From Clostridiales bacterium (GTDB lineage: Bacteria > Actinomycetota > Coriobacteriia > Anaerosomatales > SLCP01): a stretch of DNA of 64,000 nt. Position 1 is the stretch's first letter. Each line of letters begins with the position of its first letter. Of the stretch, positions 24,662-49,151 are shown piece after piece. The notes below the pieces were generated by a model that searched no databases, was not told the DNA's origin, and saw only the letters and a list, made by a program, of their open reading frames with translations. The DNA lies in the NCBI GenBank assembly GCA_018333995.1, contig JAGXSG010000021.1:7723-71722 (forward strand). Direction: 5' to 3'. The position numbers were made by a program, and so were the translations under genes.

Positions 24662-27600
24662 CTAATTCTGGAGCCACACCCTGTCGAGGTAGAGCCGGTG
24701 GTCCTGATGGCCGCCGCTCGTATGGTCGATCTGTATCCGCAGCTCTCCGCTACCTGATACGAACCTCGGGTGAGCGATCGGATACGTGTACAATCCGTTG
24801 ACGCTCGCGGCAGGCAGCTTGCCGAGGGTGACCCAGCCCGGCGTCGCCGCTGCAAAGTCCCACGCCCGCACCACCACATTATGGCCAAGCGCCACGCCCG
24901 CCGGGTCGTAGCGGCCCCACAGCCGCAACGCCACGGGTGTGGCGGTCAATCCCGTGAAGCCGATCTCCACTCGCATCGCGGGTGAACCCTGCCGCTCATC
25001 AACGACGTAGTACGCACCGTCTTGATGGAGCACGTCGGCGAGTCCCCCCGTGACGCCATCGTTGACCGGAGCGGTGATCGCGGTTGGCCCCGCCTCCCCG
25101 ACGATACGGCTGTACGCGTTCGCGGTGCTACCGAGATGGCACGACGTGTAGCACGCACCGCCATTAGGGGCTGCGTCCACCCAGTCCACATCGGAACGAA
25201 TGAGGTAGCGGTTCACGCTTCCGTGATTGGTGTGGCATGTCTGGCAACTCAGGCGAAACTCGTCCACGTGGCGCGCGTGAAGCTGTGCGCCACTTGTCGC
25301 GTCGTAAAACCGGCTGACCTGGGGCGAACCGTCTGTGCCATCACGGTAGACCCCAGAGGCGTGACACCGGTAGCACAACATCCCCGCGTCTCCAGGCTCG
25401 ATACCGATGACCGACGCTTTGAGCAATGGAGACGCCGGACTCGTGTGCGGGCCGATCGGCTGGGACGCGCTCGCGTTACCGTGACAATCGACACAGTAGA
25501 TGCGCGCGCCCGAGGCCGGATGATCGCCCGTGACTGGATGCGCCGAGCCGCCAAGAGCCACCGAATCGAACTCAGCGGCCACGTCGCGCGGCGAGCCGCC
25601 CCACGTGGCGGGGCCGTGGCACTTGAAGCACGTCTCGTACTCGTAGTCGACACGCGGCTTGAGTGTCCCGGTCACTGGATCGTAGCCAGACGATCCTTTG
25701 AGCACACCGTAGGCGACGGGCGCGACCGCGGCCGAACCGTCGGCCACATGGACATTGTGGCAGTCGACGCACTCAACGTGGCGCGGGAACGCTCCCTGCT
25801 CCCCGGACACGTGCGCTCCCGCTACGGCGCTCGCGGGATGACGGCTACGGCCTACCGGGCCAAGATCGGCCACCACGATGCCTGGCGTCGTCCCCGCAAG
25901 CTCGACACCGCCTGCGGGGGCAGTCTCGTTAATGACGAACGTGGCACCGTCGCGGACGAGCGTCTGGAGCGATGGTGGCACGGAGACACCGGGGGTGCGA
26001 GAGAAAGTTCCCGCATTGGCAATCGCGATCTCCGCGACGCCATCGCCGTTGACGTCTCCAGCGGCTAGCGCGGCGGACGCGACTCCCATTCCCGTCTCGA
26101 CATCGACACGTGCACCGAGACCGGTCGCACCGGTCTCGAAGATGGTCACGGCGTTCATCCCCGACTCATTGCGGACCGCTACCGCGACACCCGGAACAGA
26201 TCCCGCCATGAACGGGCCAATTACCGTGTCCCACGCGCGAGCGCCGACGGTGCCAAAGACAGCCCGGGTCGCCTCGGGAACGGCGTCAGCCGATGCTGGC
26301 GCGTACACCGAAATACTCGGTGTAGCGGCGCCCGCATCCGCCACGGCGATGCCTGCGGCTCCTCCCGCGAGAACAGGGCCGATGGAGGGGCCGCGCGGCT
26401 CAGGGTGCAGCGTCTCAAATGAAGTGACCGCGACGGTCGCCGTATCCGCCTGGCTCACGACGTACACGGCCCACGGGCTGTCTGTCGCTGCCGCTGACCT
26501 TGCCGTCACCACGAGCTGATCGGGTGCGATGCCAAGACCGAGAGTGCCGCCCGCGATACCGGTTGCGTCATAGCCCAACGGAAACGACGTGGCGAGCGCT
26601 GATGTGAGCGTCGTGCCGTCGTGGCGGTAGAAGCGCAGCGTACTTGCGCCATCGGCGTCCACGCTTACGACCGCCGCCTCAGGCCTGCCGCTCGCGTCCA
26701 GCAAAAAATCCCCCGCCGTAAGCAACGAGGCGGTAGCCTCCAGCGAGTACGACGTGGCCGCGATACCGTCGAGCAGGTTGTAGCGGTAGACGTGGACACG
26801 GCCGGGGGAGCCGACGGAAGGGTCAGCGACCACGAGATCGTGCTCACCGGCCGCCGCGTCACCATCGATGCCACCGTACGCCACGGCAACGGAGCCGCTC
26901 CTGGCTTCAGGAGCGGACGGGACGTAGCGTCGCGGACCCTCGAGCGCGCGAGGGGCAGGGGTATTCGCAGGGGTCCACACGTGGAGCGAGCTATACGCGT
27001 GCGGAAGGACGAGGGGATCGTACGCGACCACGACCTCGTCTCCGGCAAGGTCAGTCGGCACCGCCATCGCCTTAAAATCGGTAGCGGCCGTTTGGCCATC
27101 ATGACAGCGATAGCACAGTTCGCGGCCCTCGGCGTCGGCGAGCGCGGTGATGACCCCGCCTCGGCCGTCCTCGCGACCCATCGGGTTGTGGCACGACTGG
27201 CACTCGCCCGCCAGACGCGTGCTCTCTCTTGACGCCCATTCGCCGAGCGGCGCGACCGTCGCTATGGTAGAACCGTGCGACGAAGCGGTGTACGTCGCCT
27301 CTCCGCTCCACGCGGTTCCCGCACCGGCCAGCGTATGGCACACGTAGCACATCGTGCGATCATTCGAAGCAATCGTCACCGTCGCCGGCGCTGACGGGGG
27401 TGAGAAACGGGTGCGGATGAGCGGAGCGATCGCCGATCCATGCGGCTCGTGGCACACACCGCACGTGATCTGCGCGGCACCTGCTCGCGGCGTGAGTCCA
27501 GCGTGTGCGGTGTCGCGATAGACGGTAAGGCCGCGGAAAGCGCTCGGCGCGCGCGCCTCGAAGTGACACGTTGCGCAGAACTCCTCGGCAGTGTTTCGCT

Positions 27601-28129
27601 CCGTCCCGTCTGAGGTCAACGCACGCAAAAGCGCCTGCCACGGTTCATCCGTCGGCGTGCGCGCTGCACCGTGAGCGTCGTGGCAGCTGCTGCACTGTTT
27701 GGGAGTGGGCCCATAGGCGGACGTGTCCGGTGCGAGCACGTGCGCCGATGCGTGCGCAAAATCATCTTGGACGCCCGTGCCCGATCCGAGCGTGTCGATG
27801 CCGTGACACGCGAAACACAGCGTCGTGTCCCCCGCGCCGGTAGGCTCGGTGATAACAAGCGCGGAGCCGGTGGTTTCCCAGGTACCCGGCATAGTGCGCT
27901 CCACCACGCCAGGCGCGGTATGGGCGCGATGGCACATCGCACACGCTTCGGGAGTGTCCGCGTCGACGACATGCGGCGCGGCGGAACCAAACGCGAGAGC
28001 GGGCGCTGCGACATAGAGGCACGCCGTGAGCACGAAAACCACGCAGCTCGCGAACGACGGCCTCACCTTACCCCGTATTCCCACCTCGGCGTACGTACGA
28101 GCCGTACGGACGCCGCGACCATCCGTCAT
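24662..28129 (-). CDS. Large secreted multihaem c-type cytochrome (13 CxxCH + 1 CxxxCH) with central FG-GAP/VCBS-like propeller region and C-terminal beta-sandwich-like domain
   Basis: 8 CxxCH in the N-terminal third and 5 CxxCH plus CYTSCH in the C-terminal third; central region with GDVNGDGVAEIAIAN-type repeats; signal/anchor FASCVVFVLTACLYVAAPALAFG; ATG at 28129 preceded by GGAAGAGG. Confidence 0.8.
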   Translation of the reverse strand: MTDGRGVRTARTYAEVGIRGKVRPSFASCVVFVLTACLYVAAPALAFGSAAPHVVDADTPEACAMCHRAHTAPGVVERTMPGTWETTGSALVITEPTGAGDTTLCFACHGIDTLGSGTGVQDDFAHASAHVLAPDTSAYGPTPKQCSSCHDAHGAARTPTDEPWQALLRALTSDGTERNTAEEFCATCHFEARAPSAFRGLTVYRDTAHAGLTPRAGAAQITCGVCHEPHGSAIAPLIRTRFSPPSAPATVTIASNDRTMCYVCHTLAGAGTAWSGEATYTASSHGSTIATVAPLGEWASRESTRLAGECQSCHNPMGREDGRGGVITALADAEGRELCYRCHDGQTAATDFKAMAVPTDLAGDEVVVAYDPLVLPHAYSSLHVWTPANTPAPRALEGPRRYVPSAPEARSGSVAVAYGGIDGDAAAGEHDLVVADPSVGSPGRVHVYRYNLLDGIAATSYSLEATASLLTAGDFLLDASGRPEAAVVSVDADGASTLRFYRHDGTTLTSALATSFPLGYDATGIAGGTLGLGIAPDQLVVTARSAAATDSPWAVYVVSQADTATVAVTSFETLHPEPRGPSIGPVLAGGAAGIAVADAGAATPSISVYAPASADAVPEATRAVFGTVGARAWDTVIGPFMAGSVPGVAVAVRNESGMNAVTIFETGATGLGARVDVETGMGVASAALAAGDVNGDGVAEIAIANAGTFSRTPGVSVPPSLQTLVRDGATFVINETAPAGGVELAGTTPGIVVADLGPVGRSRHPASAVAGAHVSGEQGAFPRHVECVDCHNVHVADGSAAVAPVAYGVLKGSSGYDPVTGTLKPRVDYEYETCFKCHGPATWGGSPRDVAAEFDSVALGGSAHPVTGDHPASGARIYCVDCHGNASASQPIGPHTSPASPLLKASVIGIEPGDAGMLCYRCHASGVYRDGTDGSPQVSRFYDATSGAQLHARHVDEFRLSCQTCHTNHGSVNRYLIRSDVDWVDAAPNGGACYTSCHLGSTANAYSRIVGEAGPTAITAPVNDGVTGGLADVLHQDGAYYVVDERQGSPAMRVEIGFTGLTATPVALRLWGRYDPAGVALGHNVVVRAWDFAAATPGWVTLGKLPAASVNGLYTYPIAHPRFVSGSGELRIQIDHTSGGHQDHRLYLDRVWLQN

Positions 28130-28235
28130 CGGCCTCTTCCGTTCTTGGTGCCTCGGCGGGTCATGCCGGCGACCAGACCCGAGAACCTTCCGGCCCAGTA
28201 TACCCGTCAAAGCCACGCACCGCACCGGTCAGGAC

Positions 28236-31200
28236 CTACTCTACCTGTGCACGCACCTGGTCGCGCGTCTGCTGAGTAAGCACGGAGGTACCGCCGAGAA
28301 AGCGGACCTCGTCGATCGCGTTCCTGTTAGCGGCAAGCGCGTCTCCCGTCACAGAAGTAAGGCTCGCCGAGTGAGTGAGAAGCATCACGGACCCAGCTTG
28401 GGCCTGCATAACGCCGCCAGCAAGCGCGTCGGGGAAGTTTTGCCCGGTGGCGAGCGCAACCCTAGTCCAGTCCAGCCCTACCGTCTCGGCAAACTGCGCG
28501 ATATCGACCGCCGTCGAGTAGCGGTCGGCGCCATAGCGACGCTCGACCTTAATCGCCCCGAACGCCGCCGCGAGCGAGTCGTACGACAGCGCGCTCACCG
28601 CGCCCTCGCCGCCCAAAACGATGACCCTCTTGACTCCGTGTCCCTTCATCGCCGCGATGGTCGCGGCATTCACCGCGTCAGATGTGTCGAACAGGTAGAG
28701 CGGCCACCCCTTTGCGGCGGCGATAGGCGCTGCGGCAAGGGAGTCAGGAAACGTGCGGCCTGTAGCGACGAAGGCGGTACCGTCCCAGCCAGTGTTCTCT
28801 GCCACAATACGCGCGGCGATCTCTCGGGCGGTCTCGTAACGGTGCGTCCCCTGGAATCGTTGCACGTCAAGACCCATCTGTGCGAGCGTGCGCGACACGG
28901 CGCTATCGACGGCCGCGCTGCCCCCGACGATGACGACCCGATCAGCCCCGAGACGCACGATCTGGTCGCGAGCTTCCGCGGACAGAAACGCTCTGCGCGT
29001 CAACAGAAGGGCCGCCCCACGCACGCCGGCTAGGCCAGACGCCGAGAGCGCGTCGGGAAACGACTCGCCCGAGGCGAGCACCACAGTGCGCCTGCCGTCA
29101 GGTCCTCGCGGCATCGGGCTGGCGGGAAACGCGATCGCGGTCGCGCGCGCGGCGGTCGCGTACCTGTTCGCACCCGCGACCTCGGTAAACGCTGGCGGCA
29201 GATCGAGCCGCACCTCACGCGTGCCCTGCGACGAGTTGCCAAGGGAGTCAGTTGCCCAAAAGTGGATGGTGTGGACACCCGAACGCGATATCACGATATC
29301 CGCCGAGGCGCCCGCGACCGGCACCCAAGGAGCACTCGGATCGAGGCGGTACGCGAGGTGCGCCACATGTCCTGCGTGCGAGTCCGCCGCCGCTATCCGG
29401 ACAGTGCCTGCGAGCGGTTGCTGCGAAACCACCGTTGCGGTGACCACAGGTGCGGTCACGTCGACACGTACCTGGACCGTTGCCGCGGCGCTCCACACAT
29501 CGGCGTCTCTGGCACGCACGTACACGGTATGGGTTCCGCTCGGGACGCCGCTCAGGGTGGCCGAGGTCTCCGTCGTCATCACCTCGAGGGCGGCTGCGGG
29601 GTCAAGCGAGTACCAGTAGCCCCTGATACCGGTGCCAGACGCTTCCCACCCAAGCGCGATCGAGTCGTTTCCGTACCACGCAGTGGAAACCGGATGGCTC
29701 GTTGAGCTCAATGCGGTTATCTCGGGCGGAGCGGGCGCGCCTGGTGAGCGCAACACGACCTCCATCGAGCCTGACCGCTCGTTTCCCGCACGGTCGGTCG
29801 CACGATACGCAAGCTCGTACGTCCCAATCGCATCGAAGTACAGCGTTGACGAGGTTCCCATGACCGGCGTCCATACGCCACCGCCAATGCGGTACTCAAA
29901 CCCGGTAACGCCCGAATGCGCATCGGAAACTGACAGGTTCACCGCGACGGGTTGCCCCTCGTAGATATAGCCGCTTGCATTGATGTCGTGCGAGAAGACC
30001 GGGGGCGCGGTATCGACACGCACTGGCAGAGGATCACTCGGCGGCCCCCACTGGCCCCACACGTCAAGCGCTCTGACCCGCACATACCACTCACCGCTCG
30101 CTTGCGCGGTCACGCCAGCGGAAGGGGAGCTCACGCCACACATCAGTGTGGTCGGCGGCACCGCTGCAGGAGAGGCATCAAGCACGTACGAGTACCCGAC
30201 GATGTACTCCGGGTTGCCGGCGTCCCACACGAGGCTCACTGCCGTTTGAGACTTCCACGCCGACGGGTCGGGATGCGACGATGAGACCAGGCCTGTGACA
30301 ACAGGCGGAGGTGCGGCGAAGTCAGCGCGTTCCCACGTCGCGCCATCGCTCGAATACAAAATGACGCCAACGCCGCCCACCGCCACGGCCTCAGAAGTGC
30401 CTGGACGCGCGGCGATTCCCCTGAGATCGAACGAGGAGACGGCCTGCGCGCTCCACGACGCGCCACCGTTGGTCGTGCTGATGATCCTCCCCGAAGGCCC
30501 TACCGCCCACGCGCGGTTCCCGTCGGACATCGCGACGCTCCTCAAGTCGACGGTCACCCCCGTCGCCGTCGCGGTCCATGCATCCCCGCCGTTCACGGTG
30601 CGCCACGCTCTGCCGCCCGCGCCCACGACCACGCCCGCGCTCGACGTTCCAAACGCGATGCCAAGAAGCGGTCCAGCGTTCGCGAACGCGGTCTTGTCCT
30701 GGGATTGCCACTGTCCAAACAGCCTGGTGACCGGATCGTACGCTCGCGTCCACACGAAACCGTTGTTGGCGACAGGAGCGTCACGGTTGGCCTGGTAGCG
30801 ATCGTGTCCAGCTACCCACGCCCTCTCAGGACCCGCCGCGCCAATTCGGACATCCACCGAATAGAACTCACCCATGCCGAGGAATACCGGCTCATTGTGC
30901 GTAATGGGGTCGAGATACTCCCTGGCCTGGAAGAGCGTCGCCCACTCGCCGTAGAGGACGGGCGGGAAGCGCCGGAACATAAGCGTTGCGGCCGATGACG
31001 ACGTTCCCTGTCGCCCCGCTGCAAGTCCCGTCATCCCTTCACCGCCGGAGAGGCTTTCGCTGATCACCGCAAGATCGAACACCGCCCCGGGACCCTGCGA
31101 AGGGAAGATGCTCTGCGCTGTTCCGGTCGAACCGTGAGGGTACGCCGGTGCCCACGTCTTGCCACCGTCGGCAGTGTGAAAGAGCACCCCCGCGCGTGAG

Positions 31201-31514
31201 ATCGTCCATCCGCGATTCGCGTCGATAAACGACACTCCCGTCAGTTCATGCGTGCCACCAGGCATGACGGCCGCCCGCACCCACGTCCCCGGCTTGCCGC
31301 CCTCAGTCGAGCGCACGACCGTTCCCGAGGACCCCACGGCAACGACAAGCTGGCTGGTCGCGTACGTTACCGCATTGAGACTGGCCGAGGTGATTCGCAC
31401 GGTGGAAGCGGTAACCGCATGGGCCTCCATTGGGGTGGCGAGCGGAAACATCGAAAGCGCGAGCGCCCATGCGAGAAGAACTCTCGCGGAAGCATCCATC
31501 ACGTGATTCAACAT
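28236..31514 (-). CDS. Cell-wall-anchored surface protein: BNR/Ycf48-like propeller repeats, Ig/FN3-like modules, 3x CWB2 cell-wall-binding repeats
   Basis: Signal peptide ending MEAHA; repeated GG-x-x-W motifs (ADGGKTW, VNGGDAW, TNGGASW, SDGATW); C-terminal triplet GANRYATAA...SGESFPDALSA / GTHRYETAR...TGRTFPDSLAA / GADRYSTAV...TGQNFPDALAG. Confidence 0.75.
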   Translation of the reverse strand: MLNHVMDASARVLLAWALALSMFPLATPMEAHAVTASTVRITSASLNAVTYATSQLVVAVGSSGTVVRSTEGGKPGTWVRAAVMPGGTHELTGVSFIDANRGWTISRAGVLFHTADGGKTWAPAYPHGSTGTAQSIFPSQGPGAVFDLAVISESLSGGEGMTGLAAGRQGTSSSAATLMFRRFPPVLYGEWATLFQAREYLDPITHNEPVFLGMGEFYSVDVRIGAAGPERAWVAGHDRYQANRDAPVANNGFVWTRAYDPVTRLFGQWQSQDKTAFANAGPLLGIAFGTSSAGVVVGAGGRAWRTVNGGDAWTATATGVTVDLRSVAMSDGNRAWAVGPSGRIISTTNGGASWSAQAVSSFDLRGIAARPGTSEAVAVGGVGVILYSSDGATWERADFAAPPPVVTGLVSSSHPDPSAWKSQTAVSLVWDAGNPEYIVGYSYVLDASPAAVPPTTLMCGVSSPSAGVTAQASGEWYVRVRALDVWGQWGPPSDPLPVRVDTAPPVFSHDINASGYIYEGQPVAVNLSVSDAHSGVTGFEYRIGGGVWTPVMGTSSTLYFDAIGTYELAYRATDRAGNERSGSMEVVLRSPGAPAPPEITALSSTSHPVSTAWYGNDSIALGWEASGTGIRGYWYSLDPAAALEVMTTETSATLSGVPSGTHTVYVRARDADVWSAAATVQVRVDVTAPVVTATVVSQQPLAGTVRIAAADSHAGHVAHLAYRLDPSAPWVPVAGASADIVISRSGVHTIHFWATDSLGNSSQGTREVRLDLPPAFTEVAGANRYATAARATAIAFPASPMPRGPDGRRTVVLASGESFPDALSASGLAGVRGAALLLTRRAFLSAEARDQIVRLGADRVVIVGGSAAVDSAVSRTLAQMGLDVQRFQGTHRYETAREIAARIVAENTGWDGTAFVATGRTFPDSLAAAPIAAAKGWPLYLFDTSDAVNAATIAAMKGHGVKRVIVLGGEGAVSALSYDSLAAAFGAIKVERRYGADRYSTAVDIAQFAETVGLDWTRVALATGQNFPDALAGGVMQAQAGSVMLLTHSASLTSVTGDALAANRNAIDEVRFLGGTSVLTQQTRDQVRAQVE

Positions 31515-31623
31515 GCGACACACCCCTTTAAGTAACGCCGGTGCGGTGCCGGCCGCACAGTACGAGCACATGGAGCACCTAACATGCACACATCAGCAAA
31601 CGACATGCCCCGCATCCGGCCAA

Positions 31624-33225
31624 TCATCCGTCTGCGTCCTCCGGGTCTCTAACAGCACGGTCCCCGTCTGGGCGTGGCGCCGAGTACGCGAACTCCTCAA
31701 CGAATCCGGCCACGTCAAGTACATCGATGCCGCTCGCGGCTGCTACCGCCGCAAGCGATGAGTGCTCGGTAAGTAAGACCCGGTGGCGCCGAGCGAGCGA
31801 GAGCGTCGCCGCGAGCTCAGACCCGAGTTCGAACCTCTCATCGAGCGCGGTCGCATCGGGATGCGAGTACTCAGAGACCTCCGCGGTGGGACCGGGACGG
31901 CGACGCGCTCCATCGGCGGTCTCGGGGGTCACGATGAGGCGCACCGGCCGCCATCCCCTCGAAGCCTGGGCAACATCACGAAGACGGTCGAGCGCCTCAC
32001 GGGAGGCGACGACACGCACGGTCCGGACGAGCGCGAGTAACGCGATTGGCGAGAGGAGAAATGGTGCCGCGATCAAACCGTACCAGCTCGGGCCACCCGG
32101 CCACGCCAAAGGCACGCGAGCGTCCGGAGGGGCCCACTCGAACACCTGAATTCGGGCGTTCCCGGTGTCCGCTACGTAGAGAGCGTCCGCGCTGACCGCG
32201 ACATCGTTTGGAAAGGACAGGCCGCCGGCTCCCAAACCGGGGCCTCCGATCCGTCCGAGTTCCGTCCCGATATCGTTGACAAGGACGACCTCGTGCGAGA
32301 ACGCGTCGACGAGCGCGAAGTGCGGGCGTCTTGCCTGCTCGCTCGGCGGCAAGAGCTCAACTCCCCTGATCAACCTGCCAAGGGGAATCGAACGGACGAT
32401 CGAACCGTCCTCGTCAAGCTCTACGAGACGGCGGCTGTTGCTGTCGGCAACCCAGGTGCGCCCGTCACGCGAGGCGATCCCGTTGGGGTGATCGAACCCG
32501 CCTGGGGTGCCAGGCAGCACGGCTGCAGGCGGTGACACGCCGAGCACCTCACCGGAGCGGTCAAGGTGCCACACACGGTGCCCTGTCTTGGCGGTATCCG
32601 TCACGTGAATCGAGCCATCCTCGGCAAACGCGACCGCTACAGGAGCCCACTCAACCGGCTGGCTTTCAGCATCAACCGGCGTGATCGTCTCGACGAACGA
32701 GCCGTCGAACGCGAACACCATTAGGGCACCTATTCCTCGATCAACGACGATGATCTGCTCGGCGGCCTCGTCGCACGCGATTCCAACCGGAACCTCTAGC
32801 CGCTCTCCTCCAATGGCGCGCGCCGAGATACCCGTGCCCTGAAACGCTACGACGTGCCCCGCGAGCGAGTCGGTGACAAAGACCGTTTCCCCTGCCACGC
32901 ACACTCCCACCGGACGCTGAAGAGGCAATTCCTCCGTCCCGGTGAACTCGTAAGCGAAACGAGGTGTCGCGATGAGCGCGCTTGCCGCGTCAGCGATCAG
33001 CTGCGGTGCCACCTCCCCAGCGAGCAACCGGCGCGCATCCGCCGAAACACCCGCAACGCCCAGTGCGAACGCCGCACATACCGCTACGACCAGCCGTCTT
33101 CGCCTGCGCCGCACTCCTGTGAGCCTGGAGGGGGGGCGGGCGCGATCATGCGCTGATGCGCGGCGGGTGGTCGCGTTCACCGGCTCACGATCCAGCGATC
33201 GCCTTGGCGGCCTCGATGATCGCAC
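31624..33225 (-). CDS. Bitopic NHL-repeat beta-propeller protein with second TM helix and cytoplasmic PIN-like (degenerate) C-terminal domain, paralogue 1
   Basis: Arg-rich N-terminus + TM, NHL-type repeats (VADSNSRRLVELD, VADTGNARIQVF), TM WYGLIAAPFLLSPIALLALV, about 150-aa C-terminal domain; a GTG at 33180 would avoid overlap with the upstream gene. Confidence 0.65.
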   Translation of the reverse strand: MRSSRPPRRSLDREPVNATTRRASAHDRARPPSRLTGVRRRRRRLVVAVCAAFALGVAGVSADARRLLAGEVAPQLIADAASALIATPRFAYEFTGTEELPLQRPVGVCVAGETVFVTDSLAGHVVAFQGTGISARAIGGERLEVPVGIACDEAAEQIIVVDRGIGALMVFAFDGSFVETITPVDAESQPVEWAPVAVAFAEDGSIHVTDTAKTGHRVWHLDRSGEVLGVSPPAAVLPGTPGGFDHPNGIASRDGRTWVADSNSRRLVELDEDGSIVRSIPLGRLIRGVELLPPSEQARRPHFALVDAFSHEVVLVNDIGTELGRIGGPGLGAGGLSFPNDVAVSADALYVADTGNARIQVFEWAPPDARVPLAWPGGPSWYGLIAAPFLLSPIALLALVRTVRVVASREALDRLRDVAQASRGWRPVRLIVTPETADGARRRPGPTAEVSEYSHPDATALDERFELGSELAATLSLARRHRVLLTEHSSLAAVAAASGIDVLDVAGFVEEFAYSAPRPDGDRAVRDPEDADG

Positions 33226-34072
33226 CCTTGTGCTCGGCCGGATTGTCCGATGTCGTGTAGAACTCGAGCAGAATCAAGATGCCACGATCGGTCATCCCGA
33301 GCCGGACGTAGTTCGGGCGCGTGCCAACAAACCCGTCGAGCGAGCCGATCCTCACGTCTTCACCTGACGTCACGAAGCGTTCACGTACCCGCTCACCGAG
33401 CATCTGTTGCGCCTGCTTTGCGTCTTTGAACTGTTCGACCTCGACGGAGAGTTGAACGATTGGACCGCTATTGACAGGCATGTAGTCACGGAACAACACA
33501 AACGGATCCGACACGAGCGACTGTCCCACGAAGCCGGGAATCTTGTCCGGCACGTAGTGAACGAGGTTCGCGATCGGACCCACTACCGGGCTGCCCTCAC
33601 CAGGAGGCGTCCCACCTCCGCCGTCGCCTGGCCCGGGCGACGTGCCGGACGTGCCGCCACCCGCAGCGCCGGTGGAGGTGCCTGTGCCCGCAGCACCGCG
33701 CTCTCCCCTGATCTCGGCGAGGCGCCTTCCGGCGCTTCTGTACTCCGCATCCAGCTCTGCCATCTCGGCCAACACCCGCTCAGCCGCTTCGAGATCGCCT
33801 GCGGCACGTGCCTTCTCAGCAGCTTCATCGAGCGCCGCGAGTTTGGTGTGAAGGTCACACGTGATCACTCGTGTGGTCACGCCATGCTCGGCCACTTCAT
33901 CAGCGGGCACCTCACGCTGCTCGACAGTGTCAGAAACGACGTGGCCCTCGGTGCAAAGAACAATCTCGCCTGACTCCACCTGCACCATCTTGCGACTGCA
34001 GCCGGGCGCAAAGGCAAGGGCCCCTGCTACCGCGATAGCGAGGATGATCGGTGTCACTCGCCTCATTGACAT
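33185..34072 (-). CDS. Lipoprotein of unknown function with Gly-rich linker
   Basis: Lipobox-like AFAPGCS after a signal peptide; low-complexity GAAGTGTSTGAAGGGTSGTSPGPGDGGGGTPPG; 295 aa. Confidence 0.6.
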   Translation of the reverse strand: MSMRRVTPIILAIAVAGALAFAPGCSRKMVQVESGEIVLCTEGHVVSDTVEQREVPADEVAEHGVTTRVITCDLHTKLAALDEAAEKARAAGDLEAAERVLAEMAELDAEYRSAGRRLAEIRGERGAAGTGTSTGAAGGGTSGTSPGPGDGGGGTPPGEGSPVVGPIANLVHYVPDKIPGFVGQSLVSDPFVLFRDYMPVNSGPIVQLSVEVEQFKDAKQAQQMLGERVRERFVTSGEDVRIGSLDGFVGTRPNYVRLGMTDRGILILLEFYTTSDNPAEHKGAIIEAAKAIAGS

Positions 34073-34094
34073 CTACCTCCTGATGTACGCGGGG

Positions 34095-35615
34095 CTAACG
34101 CTCGGCATCTGGCTCGGGGCGTCGCGATTTCCACGCCGCATGGGCGACAAGCGTGACGCACGCGACGGCGACGGCGGCAACCTGCAGTGTGACTTCCACC
34201 GGCGCAAACACGATATTCGCATACTCGGTGCCGTAATCGTGCTGCAACTCCGGGGGGATCCACGGAATCCACGTCTGGATCGGTGTGAAGCGCACAGAGA
34301 AGTACACTGCTGCGGCACAGACGCCCGCGACCGCCGCCGCCGCTCTCCCGCGGCGTCCGAGCGGACGTGCCAACGTAGCAGCCAAGAGGATCGCGATCGC
34401 CAACGCGAGCCATCCACCCGTCGTGCGAAACCCTTCCAGAACAAACTCGGCGTTAAATGCGGCACCCTCGCCTGTCCGGCCCGTGACCGTCACCGCGACC
34501 CCCGGCGCCACCAAACCGGCAATCGCGAACACCGCCGCAATGAGCGCGAGCGCGTTGCGAGCGAGCGACGCACGCATGTGCGCCCAGACTGGGGCATGCG
34601 TCGCCGTGCCCGGCACGGGAATAAATGCCGCAACCACCGCCGCGCCGATCACCAACGTCGACCACCCGGCTGCCTCAAGCAGAACCGGTCGCGGGCCGAA
34701 AACCCCCGTCGCTTCCTCCACGAACAGAAGAGCCGTGATGAGCGGCGGGCCGACAAGAAACGCGGTCCCCGTAAAGCGGGTTCCCACCGTTCGCGTCACG
34801 TGCACGGCGAGCGCGAACATCAGTCCGCCGGCCGCACCGTACGAAGCGACAGCTGGCGAGGGCGCAAGCCCGGTGAGACCGCCTGCGCCCGCGAACGTCC
34901 CTACCGCGACAGCGGCAACAACCCCGCTGATGGCCGCGGGCAGGTACACGCCGCGTTGACCGTGCTTCTGTGCGAGTCGCGCTAGGGTGTACGAAGCGCC
35001 AACGAACAGCACACCGGCAAGCAACATCGCGACTTCGCGATCGGGATACCTTACGAGCAGAGAAAACGAGCTTGGCCGCTCCCAATTACCAAGAACACCC
35101 ATCGCTCCGGCCACCCCGAGCAGAGCCGCCGCGGCGTATACGGGCATGCGGGAGGCAACCGCCCCAATGAGCAAGAACAGCGCGCCCCAGATCGCCATCG
35201 TCCAGAATGCCACCACCGCGCCGGGCGGCACGTCACTCGCACGGTTGGCCACCACAAGCGCTGGTGCGGCCGCCGCGCCGAGAACACCGGCACACGCGAC
35301 GAACGCCCCATCGCGCGCGCCAAGCGACGTCAAGTCGCCCGCACGGGGCATCCCTCCAAATACACCGAGAAAGAGTAGCGCCCCTACGGTAACCGCAGTG
35401 ACGAGCTGCGCTGTCGACGCATGCGGCACCACGGCGGTCTGCAACACAAACGCCGCCGTAGCGCACAGCGCGAGGACAAGCCACACGCCTGCCGCAAGCG
35501 GCAGCGCGGCCTTGAGGGGCGGGACATAGCGGGGAGGGCCAGGCGTGGCCCGGCCCTCCCCTCGATTGCGCTTGGCGCGCTTACGATCATGCGCAAATGT
35601 CACTTGTTGTGACAC
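34095..35615 (-). CDS. Polytopic membrane protein (about 12-14 TM), unknown function, in the FDH operon
   Basis: 506 aa, almost entirely hydrophobic Ala/Gly/Val/Leu-rich segments; start overlaps the stop of the hexahaem gene (GTG at 35615 or GTGA overlap at 35603). Confidence 0.6.
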   Translation of the reverse strand: MSQQVTFAHDRKRAKRNRGEGRATPGPPRYVPPLKAALPLAAGVWLVLALCATAAFVLQTAVVPHASTAQLVTAVTVGALLFLGVFGGMPRAGDLTSLGARDGAFVACAGVLGAAAAPALVVANRASDVPPGAVVAFWTMAIWGALFLLIGAVASRMPVYAAAALLGVAGAMGVLGNWERPSSFSLLVRYPDREVAMLLAGVLFVGASYTLARLAQKHGQRGVYLPAAISGVVAAVAVGTFAGAGGLTGLAPSPAVASYGAAGGLMFALAVHVTRTVGTRFTGTAFLVGPPLITALLFVEEATGVFGPRPVLLEAAGWSTLVIGAAVVAAFIPVPGTATHAPVWAHMRASLARNALALIAAVFAIAGLVAPGVAVTVTGRTGEGAAFNAEFVLEGFRTTGGWLALAIAILLAATLARPLGRRGRAAAAVAGVCAAAVYFSVRFTPIQTWIPWIPPELQHDYGTEYANIVFAPVEVTLQVAAVAVACVTLVAHAAWKSRRPEPDAER

Positions 35616-36748
35616 GACTGGCAGACACCCCGGTTGTCCATCCGGAGAAACGCGTTCTTGGTTCCCGGATCCACTGCGCCCACACCCGTGTCAGGCTCAG
35701 GATCCGTGGAGTTCCACACATTGGCGTACCCTGTCATCTCCGCGTCGGAACCGTGCGCGCGATGACACGTCAAACAATCGATCCAGTCAGTCGCGCTGCC
35801 CTCAGGAGTCCAGCCGCCAAACTCTTGAGCGAGCGGGAGCGCCTGGTCGGTGACTATCAGCGAACGCGGACCCTTGTAGTTGCCGAGTTCGACGTTCACC
35901 GGATGACGGTGACGTGTCACGAACCCGAACCCGTCGTTCGCGTCGTACACGCTCGAAGTCGCAAGGTCTGGACGGTGATACTGCGTGTGGCATGCGGCGC
36001 ACCATGCGCTGATGCCACGAGTGGGATCGTTGCCGGGAGCCTTGGCATACATCGGCGACGTGTAGTTGGGCTGGTACAGGCCCATCTGCACCGCTCCGGG
36101 ATCGTGAAGCAACCAACCAGAACCGGGGTAGTTGACCTCATTTGAGATCACGTACGGGTTCGGCACGTAGTTGCCCGGGGTCGGCTCCGTGTAGCCGCCA
36201 ACCGTCACACCGTTGACGACGTCTTTAAGGAGCCGGTAGTTGGAGCTGCCGTGCACATCGTGGCACGAGCCGCATGTCATCACGATCTGGTTGCCGTAAC
36301 CCGTCGAGATGATGCCCTCTCGGCCTGTGGCGCCACCGCCCCACGCACCCCATGAACCGCCAACATAGGTATGCTTGTTCCTGCCAACGACATGGTCACC
36401 AAACGCGCCGCTGTTCAGGCCCATACCTGTTGTGCCAAAAGCGGTTCCTTCATAGACACCGTCTACCACATTGGTGTCCGCACCCGCGGCCGCACCGCCG
36501 TGGCACGTGAAGCAGAACTGATAGAGCTCGGTCGCCGTCGAGAGCAAAAGCGCGCTACGACGATCGCCGTCCCGATTCGTCCACGTGATGCTGCTCGCGG
36601 CCGTGTGGGCGCGGTGACAACCGGCGCACGCGTCGGTATCCATCGAGTAGCCACCATGAACACCGAAGTTCGCTAGAGCGACACTTGGGGCGATCAGGAG
36701 CACGGACGCGACCACGGCAAACGCAAGCACTAGTGACAACTTCCGCAT
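35600..36748 (-). CDS. Secreted hexahaem c-type cytochrome encoded with the FDH
   Basis: 6 CxxCH (CAGCH, CFTCH, CGSCH, CAACH, CLTCH, CQSCH); signal peptide MRKLSLVLAFAVVASVLLIAPSVALA; SD GAGAGGTG; N-terminal haem site homologous to that of the 24662-28129 cytochrome. Confidence 0.8.
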   Translation of the reverse strand: MRKLSLVLAFAVVASVLLIAPSVALANFGVHGGYSMDTDACAGCHRAHTAASSITWTNRDGDRRSALLLSTATELYQFCFTCHGGAAAGADTNVVDGVYEGTAFGTTGMGLNSGAFGDHVVGRNKHTYVGGSWGAWGGGATGREGIISTGYGNQIVMTCGSCHDVHGSSNYRLLKDVVNGVTVGGYTEPTPGNYVPNPYVISNEVNYPGSGWLLHDPGAVQMGLYQPNYTSPMYAKAPGNDPTRGISAWCAACHTQYHRPDLATSSVYDANDGFGFVTRHRHPVNVELGNYKGPRSLIVTDQALPLAQEFGGWTPEGSATDWIDCLTCHRAHGSDAEMTGYANVWNSTDPEPDTGVGAVDPGTKNAFLRMDNRGVCQSCHNK

Positions 36749-36753
36749 TCCAA

Positions 36754-37614
36754 TCACCTCTCTCTCACTTCGGCTGGCTCTTCAATGTTTGCTTGACGGC
36801 GTGCGATCACGGCAAGCAACCCGCCAGCGAGCAGGGTCGGCACTAGGGCCGCCTTCGCGAACGGTCCGTTCAACAGGTTCGACACCATCGGTGTGATGTG
36901 GTCTTCGATGAACGGATCAGCTTTTGGCTGGATGATGACTGCCTTCTTGCTCGCCCAGTACACGTTTCCGTCACCTTGCGCCGACACGTACCCGTTGGCC
37001 GGGTCGTTGATGTAGGCGCGGATGCGGGAACGAGTATCCCACTTCATCGCCTTGGCGGGACAGGTGTAGACGCAGCTCGGCTCGTGATCCATCTCGGCGA
37101 CGTGTGCTGAGCCAGGTAGATTGTTGCCGTTTGAAGGAAGCGGTGTGCCGTACGACCTGCCGCGTTGCGTGGTCGCGGATGCGATGGCAGCAGCGGAGCC
37201 GGCTCTCCCAAAGCACATCGTGCACTTCCATGCTTTGGCGGAGGCGAACTCGTCGCTTCCCACACCGATCTTCGGGTAACCGGCCCGGTTGCAATCCAGC
37301 TGACACTGACGATTACAGCGACTCGGATCGCAGCGATCCGGATCGATGGAAACCGCGCCATTCGCCTGCTTGGCAAGCGCCCCAAACGGACAGCGCTTCA
37401 CGCAGGGTGGATCAGGACAGTGCCAGCAACTGAAGCGGATGAACGGACCATTGTCGATCCGCTTTTGCGACTTGATGATCACGCGCGAATCGGGCGCGAC
37501 CTTGTGTATGCCGGGGTCGTCAGCCTTCATCCTCCACGTGCGCTTGCAACTCAGAACGCACCCGCGACACCTCATGCACTTGTCGACATCTTGGAAGATC
37601 GCCATCTCACTCAT
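36754..37614 (-). CDS. fdhB: 4Fe-4S ferredoxin-type beta subunit (FdhB/FdnH/DmsB-like) with C-terminal TM anchor
   Basis: Cys clusters CMRCRGCVLSCK, CWHCPDPPCVKRCP, CDPSRCNRQCQLDC, CTMC...CVYTCP; C-terminal helix AALVPTLLAGGLLAVIA; SD AAGGAGGTG. Confidence 0.8.
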   Translation of the reverse strand: MSEMAIFQDVDKCMRCRGCVLSCKRTWRMKADDPGIHKVAPDSRVIIKSQKRIDNGPFIRFSCWHCPDPPCVKRCPFGALAKQANGAVSIDPDRCDPSRCNRQCQLDCNRAGYPKIGVGSDEFASAKAWKCTMCFGRAGSAAAIASATTQRGRSYGTPLPSNGNNLPGSAHVAEMDHEPSCVYTCPAKAMKWDTRSRIRAYINDPANGYVSAQGDGNVYWASKKAVIIQPKADPFIEDHITPMVSNLLNGPFAKAALVPTLLAGGLLAVIARRQANIEEPAEVRER

Positions 37615-37629
37615 CGTTCACCACCTCCT

Positions 37630-40600
37630 TTACGTATTGATCTTCCGGATCTTGCACAGACACGCCTTGTACTCGGGGATCGTCGTGTTGGCGTCCCCCG
37701 CGTCGACCGTAAGGTCGTTCGCGCGCGAACCAACAGACAGTCCTCGCTCGCCCCAGTGCCATGGGATCGCGACCACGCCTGGACCAACCCGCTGATTGTC
37801 AGCCATGCCAACACCCACGCGAGCCACAAAACCCTTGGCGAACGTGCCGGCGTTAGGCGACAGTACCGCCTGGCTCGCCTGTGTCGACTCACCGCGGGCC
37901 GTGATGACGTTGACGTAGTCTCCGGACGTAATCCCCCACCTGTTTGCGTCGACCGAGTTAATCTCGATCCACGGCTCGGGCTCAGCTTCATGGTTCCACG
38001 GATTGTTGCGCGTGATGGGACCGCCCTGGAAGTGCTCGACACACCTGATAGTGGTGAGCACCAGGTCGAAGCTCGAATCGGCCACGTTCTTGCCCACAAT
38101 CAGCGTGTCCGTCGGCGCGAGGTTCCACTGCGTGCCGCCAGGACCGCCAAACCCCGTGCCCATCGTGGTGTTGCGCCCAAATTTGGGGAGCAGACCTTTC
38201 GGGTCACTCTGCGCCAACGGAGTCTCGTATGGCTCGGTATGGGCTGGGAAGCGTCCCGGAATAACATGGACACTCTGCGGAGAGCCTACATTGTCCGGCA
38301 TGTCCGACAGCCGATGGTAGAAACGGTACCACCTCGCGTAGTTGAGATTGATGCCCGCAAGTGCCGTGTCCGTTACAAACAAGCGAGAAATCGAATCAGG
38401 ACTCATGTAGAAGTCGAGCACGTCACCGGGAACGTCGCCATTGTTGTAGAGAACGCGGCGATTGACGAGCCACGCGTAACCCCAGCCCGGGTAGGCAAGG
38501 GTGCCGTTAGGATCACTGGTGTCGCGGCTCTTGGCGCGGTTGAAGACCTTCCACGCCTGCTGGTTGGGGTGAGTGTTCGCAAAGAGCCGTTGCTCCCGGG
38601 TGTCGGTGCCGCTGATCGGACTGCTGCTCGCGTTGTACGCGCCCGTGTAGAGCCACGAGGCGCCGACCGCGGGGGTGCAAAGCTCACGATAGATGCGCTC
38701 GGCGATCCATTCGCTGCCGGTGACGGTGCCCGAATGCGGCGCGGGATCGTCACCGCGCCATATCTCCGCGGTTCCGCTGAGCGACTCGAACGACGGGGAC
38801 ACGCCGGGCTTGTAACCGTAGCGGTTGTAGTAGAAGACGTCGTACGCGCTTGTCTCGGGACGGCCAATCGCAGACCACCGTGCGGTGATGTGCGAAAACG
38901 CGCCGGCCTGGTCGAACGCGTAGGCGAGCCGGAACAGTAGCTCGAGATCTGACTTACTGTTGCCGATGGGATTCACGGCCTTCTCGCGCCACTGCAGGAC
39001 ACGGCCGGAGTTGGCGGTGCTGCCTGCCTCTTCCACATGTGAGCACGATGGAATCAAGAAAGTCACGCTGCCGGGCTTGCGATCGCACGCAGCGGTCTCC
39101 GTCTCGAAGAGGTCGGTAACCGCTAACAGGTCGAGCTCTCTTAGCCCTTTGCGGACCGCGCTCAGATTGGCTTGAGTGACTGCGGGGTTTTGCCCCCAGA
39201 TCACCGCGGCCTTGATGGTTCCCGCGGCCATCTTGCGGAACATCATCGTGTGCAGATCGCCGTTGGTCTTGGGCCACAGGTCGTATAGCGCGTTTGTGAC
39301 CGTACGGTCGAGACCGGGGGTGGTCATCCAAGACCCATCCCCAAAGAAATTGTAGGTAAGGTTGGTAAAGCCCCGCTGCTGGCCGCCCATTGCGGTCGTC
39401 ACGTACGCGCGATCGTAGGTGCCCCCTGAGTTAACCGAGTTGCCCCAGAGGGTGTCCATGTACTTGCCAAACGCGTTTGTATCGTTGGTGGGGGTGGTGC
39501 CCGGAAGCGTATATGTCCCGCCCGCGGTCATCTGCGTGGGGTTCCCCGAGTAGAAGGGGATGAGGTGCGCGAGCACTCCCATGTCGGTCGAGCCCTGGAC
39601 GTTGTGGATGCCGCGAAGCGCGTTGATACCGCCGCCGGCGCGACCCACATTTCCTGTGATCGACTGAAGCACAGCGAACGCTTTCACGTTCTGAGCGCCG
39701 TGCGTGTGCTGGGTCAGACCCATGGCATAGAGCATCGTGGTGACTCGGTAGCCACCCGCAACACCTACCCTGGGATCCTGCGAACCAGTACCCGTGACCG
39801 GCCCAACGCTAGCAGCGCGACTGTGGTCGATGTAGGCGTTGACCATGAACTCAAGATCCGCCGGACTCACACCTGATACATCCTCGACGATCTGGGGTGT
39901 GTACGGTGCAACATGGTCCCAGAGCCGGTTGTAGACCGTATCGGGATTCGCATCAACAGTCGCTGCTTTGACCGGGAAGTTTGAAAACGTGTTCGCTCCG
40001 TCGGTTTTAGTCTCGCGCACGTAGTCCGTTCCCGCAGGATTGACGACGAAGCGGGCGTCCGTGTACTTGGAGCCGCCCGGAACAGAAACCGTCGCGGTAC
40101 CGCCGTCAGGGAAGAACAGATTCGCACTCGTCTCGTTGAGAAACTCGAAGAACTTCGCACGAACCGCCGGTGCGACTCCAGTGCCGGTGTTCATCCTCTC
40201 CATGATTCCACGAGTGATGCCGTTGATGATCGCGACATCGGTTCCGGGCCGGAAACGGATGAAGCGCTCGCCTTTCGCGGGATCGCACTGCAGCGCCGTT
40301 CGTGTCTTGCGGGGATCAAGAACGACGAGCTTGCCTCCCCTGTCCCGAGCGTGGTTGATGTGAGCCATGCACGCCGGGTGGTTCTCGGCGGGGTTCGCTC
40401 CCATGACCACGATCAGCGAAGCGTTGCCTATGTCGCTCCAGTTGTTCGACATGGCGCCTCGTCCAAACGCGGCGGCCAGACCGGCCACCGTGGACGAGTG
40501 TCAAACACGCGCCTGATGCTCGATGTTTGTCGTTCCAAACTGAGCGATCAAGCGGCGATACGTGAAGTTCTGCTCGTTGTTCAGGTGTGATGAGCCAAAG

Positions 40601-41142
40601 AACGCCACCTGCTTGGAGTTGTAACCGTTCTCAACCGACGGCGCTCTACCATTCGCGTCACGAGCCGCCTTCATCCCAGTAGCGATTTCGGTCATGGCGG
40701 CATCGAGGCTCACCTTGTTCCATGGCCCGTTGCCCTCGCGGCGATACGCCACGCCATCAGTGAAGCTCGGGTCGTAGTTAAAGACCGGGTTTTCAGGATG
40801 GCTCGAAAATGCGCCTATGCGGCGCGGATTGGTCACGAGCTGGTACGCGCCGGCGCCCTTAGCGCACAATCCTCCATCGTTCATCGGCGACATGTGATCG
40901 CCGTATACATCAAGCACGTTACCTGCGGAATCAACATCCACGAGCTGTCCACAGCTCGCCGAGCAGTACGGACAAGTGGTGTGGTAGGTGGCCGCTACCG
41001 TCGCAGCAAAGGCGCTTGAAGGTTTGGCCGCGAACTCAAGACCCGCGGCGCCAACAGCCGCGGTGGCGGCGCTTGCCTTCAAGAAATCCCTGCGCGATAG
41101 GTGCAACTTCCCTCCATCCTTGCCCTTGTCGTGAGTACCCAT
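37630..41142 (-). CDS. fdhA: Tat-exported molybdo/tungstopterin (bis-MGD) formate-dehydrogenase-like alpha subunit containing selenocysteine; in-frame UGA at 40503-40501
   Basis: Two ORF-track ORFs (40501-41295 and 37630-40488) are one frame joined by TGA. The junction reads IEHQARV-U-HSSTVAGLAAAFGRGAMSNNW, matching the FDH Sec-site signature. Tat motif SRRDFLKASAATAAVGA; FeS motif CPYCSASCG...GGLCAKG; ATG at 41142 after GAGAGGG. Confidence 0.85.
40471..40489 (-). promoter_or_regulatory. Bacterial SECIS apical hairpin
   Basis: GGUGGCC-GGUCU-GGCCGCC (7 bp including one G-U, 5-nt GGUCU loop) starting 11 nt after the UGA; same V-A-G-L coding context and loop type as I recall for E. coli fdhF. 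Confidence 0.7.
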
Positions 41143-41554: not shown

Positions 41555-41580
41555 GGTATTGTAACAAATGTTACAATACC
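41555..41580. promoter_or_regulatory. Perfect 12+2+12 palindrome GGTATTGTAACA-AA-TGTTACAATACC (operator site 1)
   Basis: Read directly; AT-rich in a GC-rich genome; 47 nt upstream of riboswitch copy A; core TTGTAACA-N2-TGTTACAA shared with the sites at 49134 and 59621. Confidence 0.7.
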
Positions 41581-45908: not shown

Positions 45909-45917
45909 CAGTCGACG

Positions 45918-47180: not shown

Positions 47181-47238
47181 CTCCCCTACCCTTTCTGATT
47201 CCGTGTCAAATACTGACCGCGGGACACCTCCCGCGAGC

Positions 47239-49133: not shown

Positions 49134-49151
49134 TAGTAACAACGGTTACAT
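49134..49151. promoter_or_regulatory. Operator-like palindrome site 3: TAGTAACA-AC-GGTTACAT
   Basis: 15/18 identity to the tup-leader site, including the AC spacer; about 136 nt upstream of the cytochrome b start. Confidence 0.5.

Follow-up and report, generated by a model that had tools for sequence, protein, structure and literature searches.

The 64,000-nucleotide stretch of DNA analysed here, hereafter the window (positions 7,723 to 71,722 of contig JAGXSG010000021.1, assembly GCA_018333995.1), encodes a protein of 1155 residues, here called the giant cytochrome. As predicted from its sequence, this protein is a Sec-exported c-type cytochrome of 14 haems whose chain is interrupted by a beta-propeller, and whose gene is tied to those of an exported donor enzyme and of a putative adaptor cytochrome with five to six haems. 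We regard it as probably, if not securely, the outermost multihaem cytochrome of a conduit for extracellular electron transfer (EET) in a monoderm actinobacterium of the Anaerosomatales type. The passage of electrons across the thick Gram-positive wall to minerals or electrodes is poorly understood, especially in Actinobacteria; and, to our knowledge, work in this respect has dealt with only a few cytochromes from Firmicutes, OcwA and OmhA among them.

The gene occupies an intact open reading frame (ORF) at 24662–28129 on the minus strand. The first-pass annotation of this DNA had drawn the same boundaries and left the strand unstated; the plus strand of that interval was rejected, since it contains stops only. 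We took the ATG at 28129 as the start because it is served by a good ribosome-binding site, GGAAGAGG, and coincides with the N-termini of the homologues, on which same grounds a longer ORF beginning with GTG and reaching to 28225 is unlikely. A DNA contig from a public run spans the whole gene with zero differences. The gap between the cytochrome gene and its upstream neighbour measures 106 nt, and no sigma-70-like promoter was found in it, which absence is consistent with co-transcription with the upstream gene. Neither is the regulon palindrome TGTAACnnnnGTTACA present upstream of the cytochrome gene, its occurrences in the window being only at 41560, 49135 and 59622/59631.

The evidence for a haem protein is direct: there are 13 CxxCH motifs—at residues 63, 105, 146, 185, 223, 261, 310, 339, 787, 834, 879, 919 and 962—and one CxxxCH at 993, hence 14 in all, distributed as eight in the N-terminal and six in the C-terminal part, exactly as had been counted beforehand. 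Shuffles of the same protein contained on average 0.03 CxxCH, with a maximum of 2. Every cysteine outside the signal peptide (28 of 28) belongs to one of the 14 motifs, five sites are of the CxxCHxxH type, and all motifs end in His, with no CxxCK or long-spacer motif in the protein. In an alignment of 61 homologous sequences each motif was either invariant or at least 90% conserved, and the 13 + 1 pattern was present in every non-truncated sequence. About 16 further His and Met317 are conserved as well. The N-terminal arm has seven of these spare His for its eight haems, which residues, together with the invariant Met317, are candidates for distal ligands on the strength of the alignment; the C-terminal arm, for its part, has nine for six. 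The most conserved stretch of the entire protein, residues 761–800 with the invariant H764, H773 and H784, lies directly after the propeller. The Pfam model for domain II/IV of MtrC/MtrF (PF22113) scored 45.7 bits against a cut-off of 30, over residues 101–231 only. The first haem site had been judged homologous to that of a hexahaem cytochrome linked to a formate dehydrogenase (FDH) and encoded in the same gene string, and the comparison bears this out: residues 30–122 align with residues 11–99 of the hexahaem cytochrome at 32% identity (E = 7e-8). In the AlphaFold2 model, which was built without cofactors, the predicted local distance difference test (pLDDT) of the haem arms was below 50.

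Export is likewise predicted throughout the family: by a heuristic reading of the sequences, all of the 61 homologues have a Sec signal that contains an AxA site and after which comes a conserved APHV. The n-region of the signal (28060–28129) is unusually long in the closest homologues, at some 24 residues, and has a conserved G-[IVA]-R-G-[KRE] before the hydrophobic core, which element differs from the twin-arginine motif.

Between the two sets of haem motifs extends a haem-free stretch of 443 residues (344–786), for which the earlier estimate of about 430 was close without being exact, and the FG-GAP/VCBS-type repeats quoted at that time are indeed in place, GIDGDAAAGEHDLVVAD at residues 420–436 and GDVNGDGVAEIAIAN at 691–705. 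Pfam FG-GAP (PF01839) matched residues 686–707 with 25.1 bits, the cut-off being 22.1; PF13517, PF01839 or both are present in most homologues; and seven FG-GAP-like repeats can be recognised in the family consensus. With the 61-sequence alignment as input, AlphaFold2 assigned to the propeller (residues ~365–755) a pLDDT above 90 and 28 beta-strands, that is, seven blades of four, and modelled the C-terminal residues ~1010–1155 as a beta-sandwich; for the propeller, a Foldseek search of the PDB returned the heads of the integrins alpha-V and alpha-5, CRTAC1, DDB1 and LGI1-EPTP (E = 1e-6 to 1e-4). The central region is accordingly modelled neither as disordered nor as some other fold, and is confidently predicted to be a seven-bladed propeller of the FG-GAP/integrin type. 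Conservation reaches at least 90% for one canonical motif resembling a Ca loop (D692-V-N-G-D-G-V-A-E) and is partial for a second (GIDGD, 420–424), and the rest are degenerate. None of the 61 homologues lacks the insert, which aligns with few gaps.

A word-indexed search with the giant cytochrome yielded 66 clusters at E < 1e-120, and an exhaustive search of representatives yielded 68 at E < 1e-30, about 45 of which were full length. The same domain order, for which a search had been suggested in the first-pass annotation, was thus found in other genomes, confined to Actinomycetota of the Anaerosomatales/Coriobacteriia type: the homologues with a named source came from metagenome-assembled genomes (MAGs) assigned to Anaerosomatales, Coriobacteriia or 'Actinobacteria', and among species-representative genomes the full architecture occurred in only about 15 MAGs of the Actinomycetota type. 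Proteins of other phyla matched the hexahaem arm alone (residues ~760–1000) and had no propeller. We had also considered that the propeller and the hexahaem arm might form an ancient unit shared across phyla, which notion was rejected because the distant relatives of the arm have immunoglobulin-like (Ig) or fn3 domains and no propeller. There is no NCBIfam equivalog for the giant cytochrome, and the family profile retrieved nothing from the PDB at E <= 0.01; the corresponding searches with single arms gave marginal local matches only, such as OmcE (7TFS; E = 0.018 over 27 residues).

In the relatives, both ends of the protein serve as slots for variable surface modules. A Ycf48/BNR propeller is fused at the C-terminus of two homologues (P0052 and P0066), and the BNR blades of the former are homologous to those of the wall protein encoded upstream of the giant cytochrome (E = 2e-13). 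At the N-terminus there are fusions to BNR_2 and Big_13 (P0072), to fn3 (P0082) and to an InlB B-repeat with Big_7 (P0080); the N-terminal extension of P0072 also resembles the upstream wall protein, through an Ig module and weakly (E = 0.003), which similarity is a weaker support than the P0052 fusion.

In the window's own protein the C-terminal slot is taken up by a beta-sandwich. When this domain was modelled alone, AlphaFold2 returned a beta-sandwich with a pLDDT of 94.5, for which Foldseek listed APC10/Doc1, the carbohydrate-binding modules (CBM) of families 6, 29, 32 and 4, and domain III of Cry proteins (TM-score ~0.5–0.6, E ~1e-4). The likeness to CBM6/29/32/4 and to APC10 is at the level of the fold only, with 8–15% identity, and no Pfam, NCBIfam or CAZy-type model matched the domain. 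The jelly-roll fold that had been surmised from the sequence therefore stands, although with a size of about 146 residues instead of roughly 170; and the description of the protein as capped by such a domain is correct for this protein but not for the family, since only 16 of the 61 homologues have it. The same domain is found, at 38% identity, in a 660-residue protein without haem motifs (P0196, residues ~223–349), because of which we consider the jelly roll to be a mobile accessory module; as judged from sequence, it constitutes an unnamed family of mobile domains. Its conserved signature reads QDG...GRY.G..GH.V.V.AW....W..LG.LP...Y.Y...H.S.G...H.L.LD.VWL. That the jelly roll and the gene for a CWB2 wall protein might replace one another was considered and rejected, since the window and one related locus (L013) have both, and two further loci (L007 and L015) have neither.

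The link to a donor enzyme comes from gene order. The giant cytochrome gene comes last in a string of genes that all run in the same direction on the minus strand, and it is always the terminal gene of the cluster in the related loci. The order FdhA, FdhB, hexahaem cytochrome, 506-residue membrane protein, lipoprotein-like protein, NHL protein, an optional CWB2 protein and giant cytochrome was found in 11 of the approximately 16 full-length loci, and it is kept even though the giant cytochromes are only 35–45% identical. The FDH alpha gene contains an in-frame TGA at 40501–40503 (minus strand), whose translation as selenocysteine gives HQARVUHS; from this context we take the triplet to be a selenocysteine codon, at which an automatic ORF caller breaks the gene into two parts. 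The best NCBIfam match of the alpha subunit was FDH-N alpha, with 424 bits, which score lies below the equivalog cut-off, as do its scores with all other FDH models; the TAT_signal model, for its part, scored above the cut-off. In three loci (L011, L012 and L016) the cluster is of a hydrogenase type, in which a [NiFe]-hydrogenase with a twin-arginine translocation (Tat) signal ('MAITRRQFV') takes the place of the FDH. The order there is NHL protein, small and large [NiFe] subunits, a cytochrome of five to six haems, a protein of ~424 residues without a family, and giant cytochrome; in L011 a protein with DUF5648 repeats is encoded immediately upstream of the latter. The hexahaem cytochrome of the window is orthologous, at 33–40% identity, to the small cytochrome of both the FDH-type and the hydrogenase-type clusters, and we infer that it acts as the adaptor between the dehydrogenase and the giant cytochrome.

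The remaining members of the string suggest a setting in the wall and membrane. The gene for the CWB2/BNR wall protein, optional in the cluster, precedes the cytochrome gene in 8 related loci, and its product is a candidate anchor or partner of the giant cytochrome. Neither the lipoprotein-like protein of 295 residues nor the membrane protein of 506 residues belongs to a Pfam or NCBIfam family. The latter (34095–35615, minus strand) has about 13–15 hydrophobic segments; in its 8 orthologues five residues are invariant (G110, P181, S182, P371 and G462), and no His, Cys or Met is among them, for which reason this protein probably serves as a scaffold instead of taking part in redox chemistry. 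As no cytochrome b is encoded in the cluster either, the latter has no obvious quinone-reactive subunit.

Two orthologues connect the cluster with organisms of known behaviour. One of them (P0023) is MCL4079376 from Parvivirga hydrogeniphila Es71-Z0120, and this obligate Fe(III) reducer uses H2 or formate for growth (PMC9686372). Khomyakova et al. proposed the cluster MCL4079376-90, whose first gene is the orthologue itself, as the probable determinant of Fe(III) reduction, and reported that a related isolate without iron reduction has instead an FDH linked to cytochrome b (PMC9686372). The other (P0048) is emb_1c0401 of Coriobacteriaceae EMTCatB1, the dominant bacterium of an electromethanogenic biocathode (PMC7943316). 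The transcripts per million (TPM) given for this bacterium in Table S5 of that study, with two replicates for each of the closed-circuit, open-circuit and BrES conditions, were 297, 139 and 137, respectively, for the cytochrome orthologue (1c0401); 2716, 900 and 437 for the hexahaem cytochrome (1c0406); and 1253, 194 and 194 for FdhA (1c0408) (PMC7943316). The window's organism, in turn, occurs in subsurface, groundwater and soil metagenomes. Two small contigs from a subsurface metatranscriptome lie inside the cytochrome gene with 100% identity, which is weak evidence of transcription, given that DNA carry-over is possible.

In the mechanism that we propose, formate or H2 would be oxidised outside the membrane by the Tat-exported FDH or [NiFe]-hydrogenase, and the electrons would pass from the FeS subunit to the hexahaem cytochrome and from there to the 14-haem chain, which would carry them through the cell wall, or at it, to insoluble acceptors, Fe(III) minerals among them, and could probably run in reverse on a cathode. 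The earlier picture of two arms separated by a propeller holds for the sequence, but perhaps not in space: the octahaem and hexahaem arms probably abut, so as to form one continuous wire from which the propeller would project sideways. This arrangement is suggested because a closed propeller normally has its two ends side by side, because the segment following the propeller, with its three invariant His, is the most conserved of the protein, and because the spare His are shared so unevenly between the arms. The propeller itself would be a docking or scaffold domain, either for partners in the wall (the CWB2/BNR and NHL proteins) or for the surface of a substrate, and the optional jelly roll would add adhesion to a polymer or surface. 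The first-pass annotation had suggested a mineral- or polymer-docking module of a terminal reductase; such a surface may be the dock, and the fusions and the gene neighbourhood point at least as strongly to wall-anchored partners, which for that reason we favour.

Several points weigh against placing the giant cytochrome at the outer end of the conduit. Its localisation, haem loading and partners are all deduced, and it has no recognisable wall anchor of its own: neither a lipobox in register nor LPXTG, and no CWB2 or SLH domain, could be found with Pfam or in the sequence. The cofactor-free model does not establish that the wire is continuous or where the propeller stands relative to it. A chain that is wholly extracytoplasmic would separate no charge across the membrane and has no obvious way of conserving energy. 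Any of the three other large multihaem genes of the window could encode the true terminal reductase. No genes for cytochrome c maturation (ccm) are present in the 64-kb window; in relatives, CcmE and CcmF are encoded about 10 kb from the orthologue. Finally, the rise of 1c0401 on the working biocathode is approximately two-fold in two noisy replicates, and the authors did not include it among the highly or differentially expressed cytochromes that they highlighted (PMC7943316).

The multihaem genes just mentioned give substance to the alternative that the giant cytochrome resides within the wall and only relays electrons to surface cytochromes, for instance the 20-, 13- and 7-haem proteins encoded at 44313–48138. 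With such a relay the missing anchor would be in keeping, as would the neighbouring genes for CWB2 and NHL proteins, the presence of other large multihaem genes at a distance of 16 kb, and the precedent of Thermincola, in which wall-embedded and surface cytochromes are distinct proteins. Yet within its own conserved cluster the giant cytochrome is the largest of the cytochromes and comes last, and the family carries accessory domains of the adhesion type (CBM-like, fn3 and Ig) that are typical of outward-facing proteins, whereas the multihaem genes at 44313–48138 lie outside the conserved synteny; hence we judge this relay to be quite improbable. A different objection would hold that the propeller is part of an enzyme, forming or gating an active site at which the haems feed the conversion of soluble sulfur, nitrogen or metalloid species. 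The known combinations of haem c with a propeller are, after all, catalytic (hydrazine synthase and the cd1 nitrite reductase), the propeller loops RGPSIG, ANSGE, AWDT and GDVDGDG are well conserved, and so are the atypical CxxxCH and the invariant Met317. We nevertheless find a catalytic role very improbable: the conserved His are enough for bis-His ligation of all 14 haems, with no CxxCK or long-spacer site to mark a special one, the propeller is of the FG-GAP type used in adhesion and scaffolding, there is no relative in sequence among the solved enzymes, and the gene stands among donor enzymes and wall proteins without accessory genes specific to a substrate.

The direction of electron flow is a separate question, since the cytochrome might instead draw electrons inwards, whether from a cathode, from Fe(0), from reduced minerals or from a syntrophic partner, and deliver them to the FDH or hydrogenase for the formation of formate from CO2 or of H2 from protons. 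Both types of enzyme are reversible, and the chain requires no quinone step; moreover, the orthologous cluster belongs to the dominant bacterium of the biocathode and was transcribed more under current consumption than at open circuit. The sequence, however, does not tell direction, the sole cultured carrier consumes H2 or formate and reduces Fe(III) obligately (PMC9686372), and the authors of the biocathode study favour other cytochromes, 1d0898 and 1c0642, as the likely route of uptake (PMC7943316), so that we hold an inward conduit to be conceivable though unlikely. We therefore keep to the outermost cytochrome of an EET conduit as our preferred reading. Of its possible elaborations, the most far-reaching is a self-contained, quinone-independent and reversible 'exo-enzyme wire', which would lead from a Tat-exported FDH or [NiFe]-hydrogenase via the orthologous small cytochrome to the propeller cytochrome as its outer end, with the propeller docked on the CWB2/BNR and NHL proteins and thereby holding the 14-haem chain in the wall, which proposal we offer tentatively, as one whose chances are rather low.

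Table 1. Features of the giant cytochrome gene and of its cluster, with positions in the window
Feature	Position	Strand	Basis or remark
CBM/galactose-binding-like jelly roll, residues ~1010–1155	24665..25102	-	Lineage-specific accessory; AlphaFold2 and Foldseek
C-terminal hexahaem arm, residues 757–1006	25112..25861	-	CxxCH 787, 834, 879, 919, 962; CxxxCH 993
Predicted seven-bladed FG-GAP beta-propeller, residues ~360–756	25862..27052	-	AlphaFold2, Foldseek, Pfam FG-GAP
N-terminal octahaem arm, residues 47–346	27092..27991	-	Eight CxxCH; Pfam Paired_CXXCH_1, Cytochrome_C7, MtrC/MtrF domain II/IV
Predicted Sec signal peptide, residues 1–46	27992..28129	-	Positive n-region, hydrophobic core, AxA; predicted cleavage after ALA, before FGSAAPHV
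Ribosome-binding site GGAAGAGG	28133..28140	-	4 nt upstream of ATG 28129, read from sequence
Wall protein: Ycf48/BNR propeller, Big_13/OmpL47 Ig-like, three CWB2 repeats	28236..31589	-	Pfam, NCBIfam
NHL-repeat propeller protein	31624..33225	-	Pfam NHL; syntenic in related loci
Lipoprotein-like protein (295 residues) and polytopic membrane protein (506 residues)	33185..35615	-	Syntenic in FDH-type loci
Hexahaem cytochrome, six CxxCH	35600..36757	-	N-terminus homologous to that of the giant cytochrome
Tat-exported selenocysteine FDH-like molybdoenzyme, alpha and FeS subunits	36754..41142	-	Twin-arginine signal, TGA=U translation

On the other side of the cytochrome gene, and convergent to it, is a gene for a YkuD-type L,D-transpeptidase with PG_binding_4 (23575–24654, plus strand). 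A transpeptidase with 33–53% identity occupies the equivalent position in six loci (L001, L007, L011, L013, L014 and L017), and it may be a peptidoglycan-remodelling partner for the insertion of a large wall protein. The three additional multihaem ORFs, all on the minus strand, are at 44313–45917 (20 CxxCH), 45921–47330 (13) and 47242–48138 (7); counting the 14-haem and 6-haem proteins as well, 24 kb of DNA encode about 60 haem sites. The palindrome TGTAACnnnnGTTACA recurs, as a near-perfect copy, at 49135–49150, upstream of these three genes.

With respect to what these results may mean, the family offers a testable candidate for EET in Actinobacteria, having both a cultured carrier that obligately reduces Fe(III) and an electrode-associated carrier with transcriptome data; it is further marked by its strict link to an exported FDH or hydrogenase and by a built-in propeller as a possible docking element. 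In other EET clusters the propellers (NHL, FG-GAP/CRTAC1) are separate proteins whose role is unknown, so that the in-chain version provides a route to their function. Given how widely the organism turns up in metagenomes of the subsurface and of groundwater, the module may play a part in the cycling of iron and hydrogen in the subsurface, in biocorrosion and in bioelectrochemical systems. If the exo-enzyme wire were real, these Actinobacteria would be able both to give and to take the equivalents of formate or H2 by direct exchange with minerals, electrodes or partner cells, and the wire would account for the cathodic supply of formate or H2 to methanogens in electromethanogenic biocathodes.

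Among the known systems, the MtrC, OmcA and MtrF proteins of Shewanella are likewise secreted multihaem proteins of EET in which haem domains alternate with all-beta domains devoid of haem. MtrC, however, is a lipoprotein of a diderm, combines two pentahaem domains with two split beta-barrels and docks on a porin, MtrAB, whereas the giant cytochrome has 8 + 6 haems, an FG-GAP propeller and an optional jelly roll, possesses no lipobox and comes from a monoderm host. The profile search of the PDB retrieved no chain of the MtrC family, and no porin or MtrA gene is in the cluster of the giant cytochrome; the protein lacks the features that define the MtrC family, namely the split barrels, the lipoprotein anchor and the porin partner. 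A further parallel is found in OcwA of Thermincola potens, OmhA and SmhA-C of Carboxydothermus ferrireducens and CFE_2239 of Carboxydocella thermautotrophica, which are also secreted multihaem cytochromes of monoderms, are encoded together with NHL and wall-associated proteins and have been proposed as terminal Fe(III) reductases, as here. CFE_2239 has been portrayed as the fusion of a cytochrome with an adhesin-like part, and Khomyakova et al. reported that cytochromes of the orthologous cluster are related to CFE_2239 and SmhB (PMC9686372). None of the descriptions of OcwA, OmhA, SmhA-C and CFE_2239 includes a propeller within the chain, the propellers of the published EET clusters (NHL) being separate proteins; and no match to OcwA, whose structure has been solved, was obtained in the profile search at E <= 0.01, or with the single arms even at E <= 10.

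The combination of c-type haem and beta-propeller in one protein or complex is shared with hydrazine synthase and cytochrome cd1. Those enzymes are nonetheless catalytic, contain one or two haems c together with specialised active-site haems, use other classes of propeller and have no long wire, and the giant cytochrome has no similarity in sequence to either of them or to other enzymes of the PDB. A full-text search of the literature for a multihaem cytochrome with FG-GAP retrieved only a paper on hydrazine synthase, in which the haem-propeller is catalytic, and we found no account in the literature of a multihaem wire with a propeller set into it. The initial impression that this architecture had not been recognised before is thus right as regards a published description of the domains, but the cluster itself had already been pointed out, without domain analysis, in two published genomes (PMC9686372; PMC7943316). 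As to the insert, the propellers of the integrin alpha chains, of CRTAC1 and of bacterial FG-GAP/VCBS proteins agree with it in fold, in repeat signature and in one conserved DxNxDG motif resembling a Ca loop; the difference is that in the giant cytochrome the propeller is an insertion in a cytochrome, and that a canonical Ca loop is found in one or two repeats only. Also close are the two orthologues MCL4079376 and emb_1c0401, of about 900–980 residues and without the jelly roll, which are annotated as 'cytochrome c3 family' or 'hypothetical' and which share with the giant cytochrome, at 41–42% identity, the 13 + 1 haem pattern, the propeller and the FDH-linked synteny.

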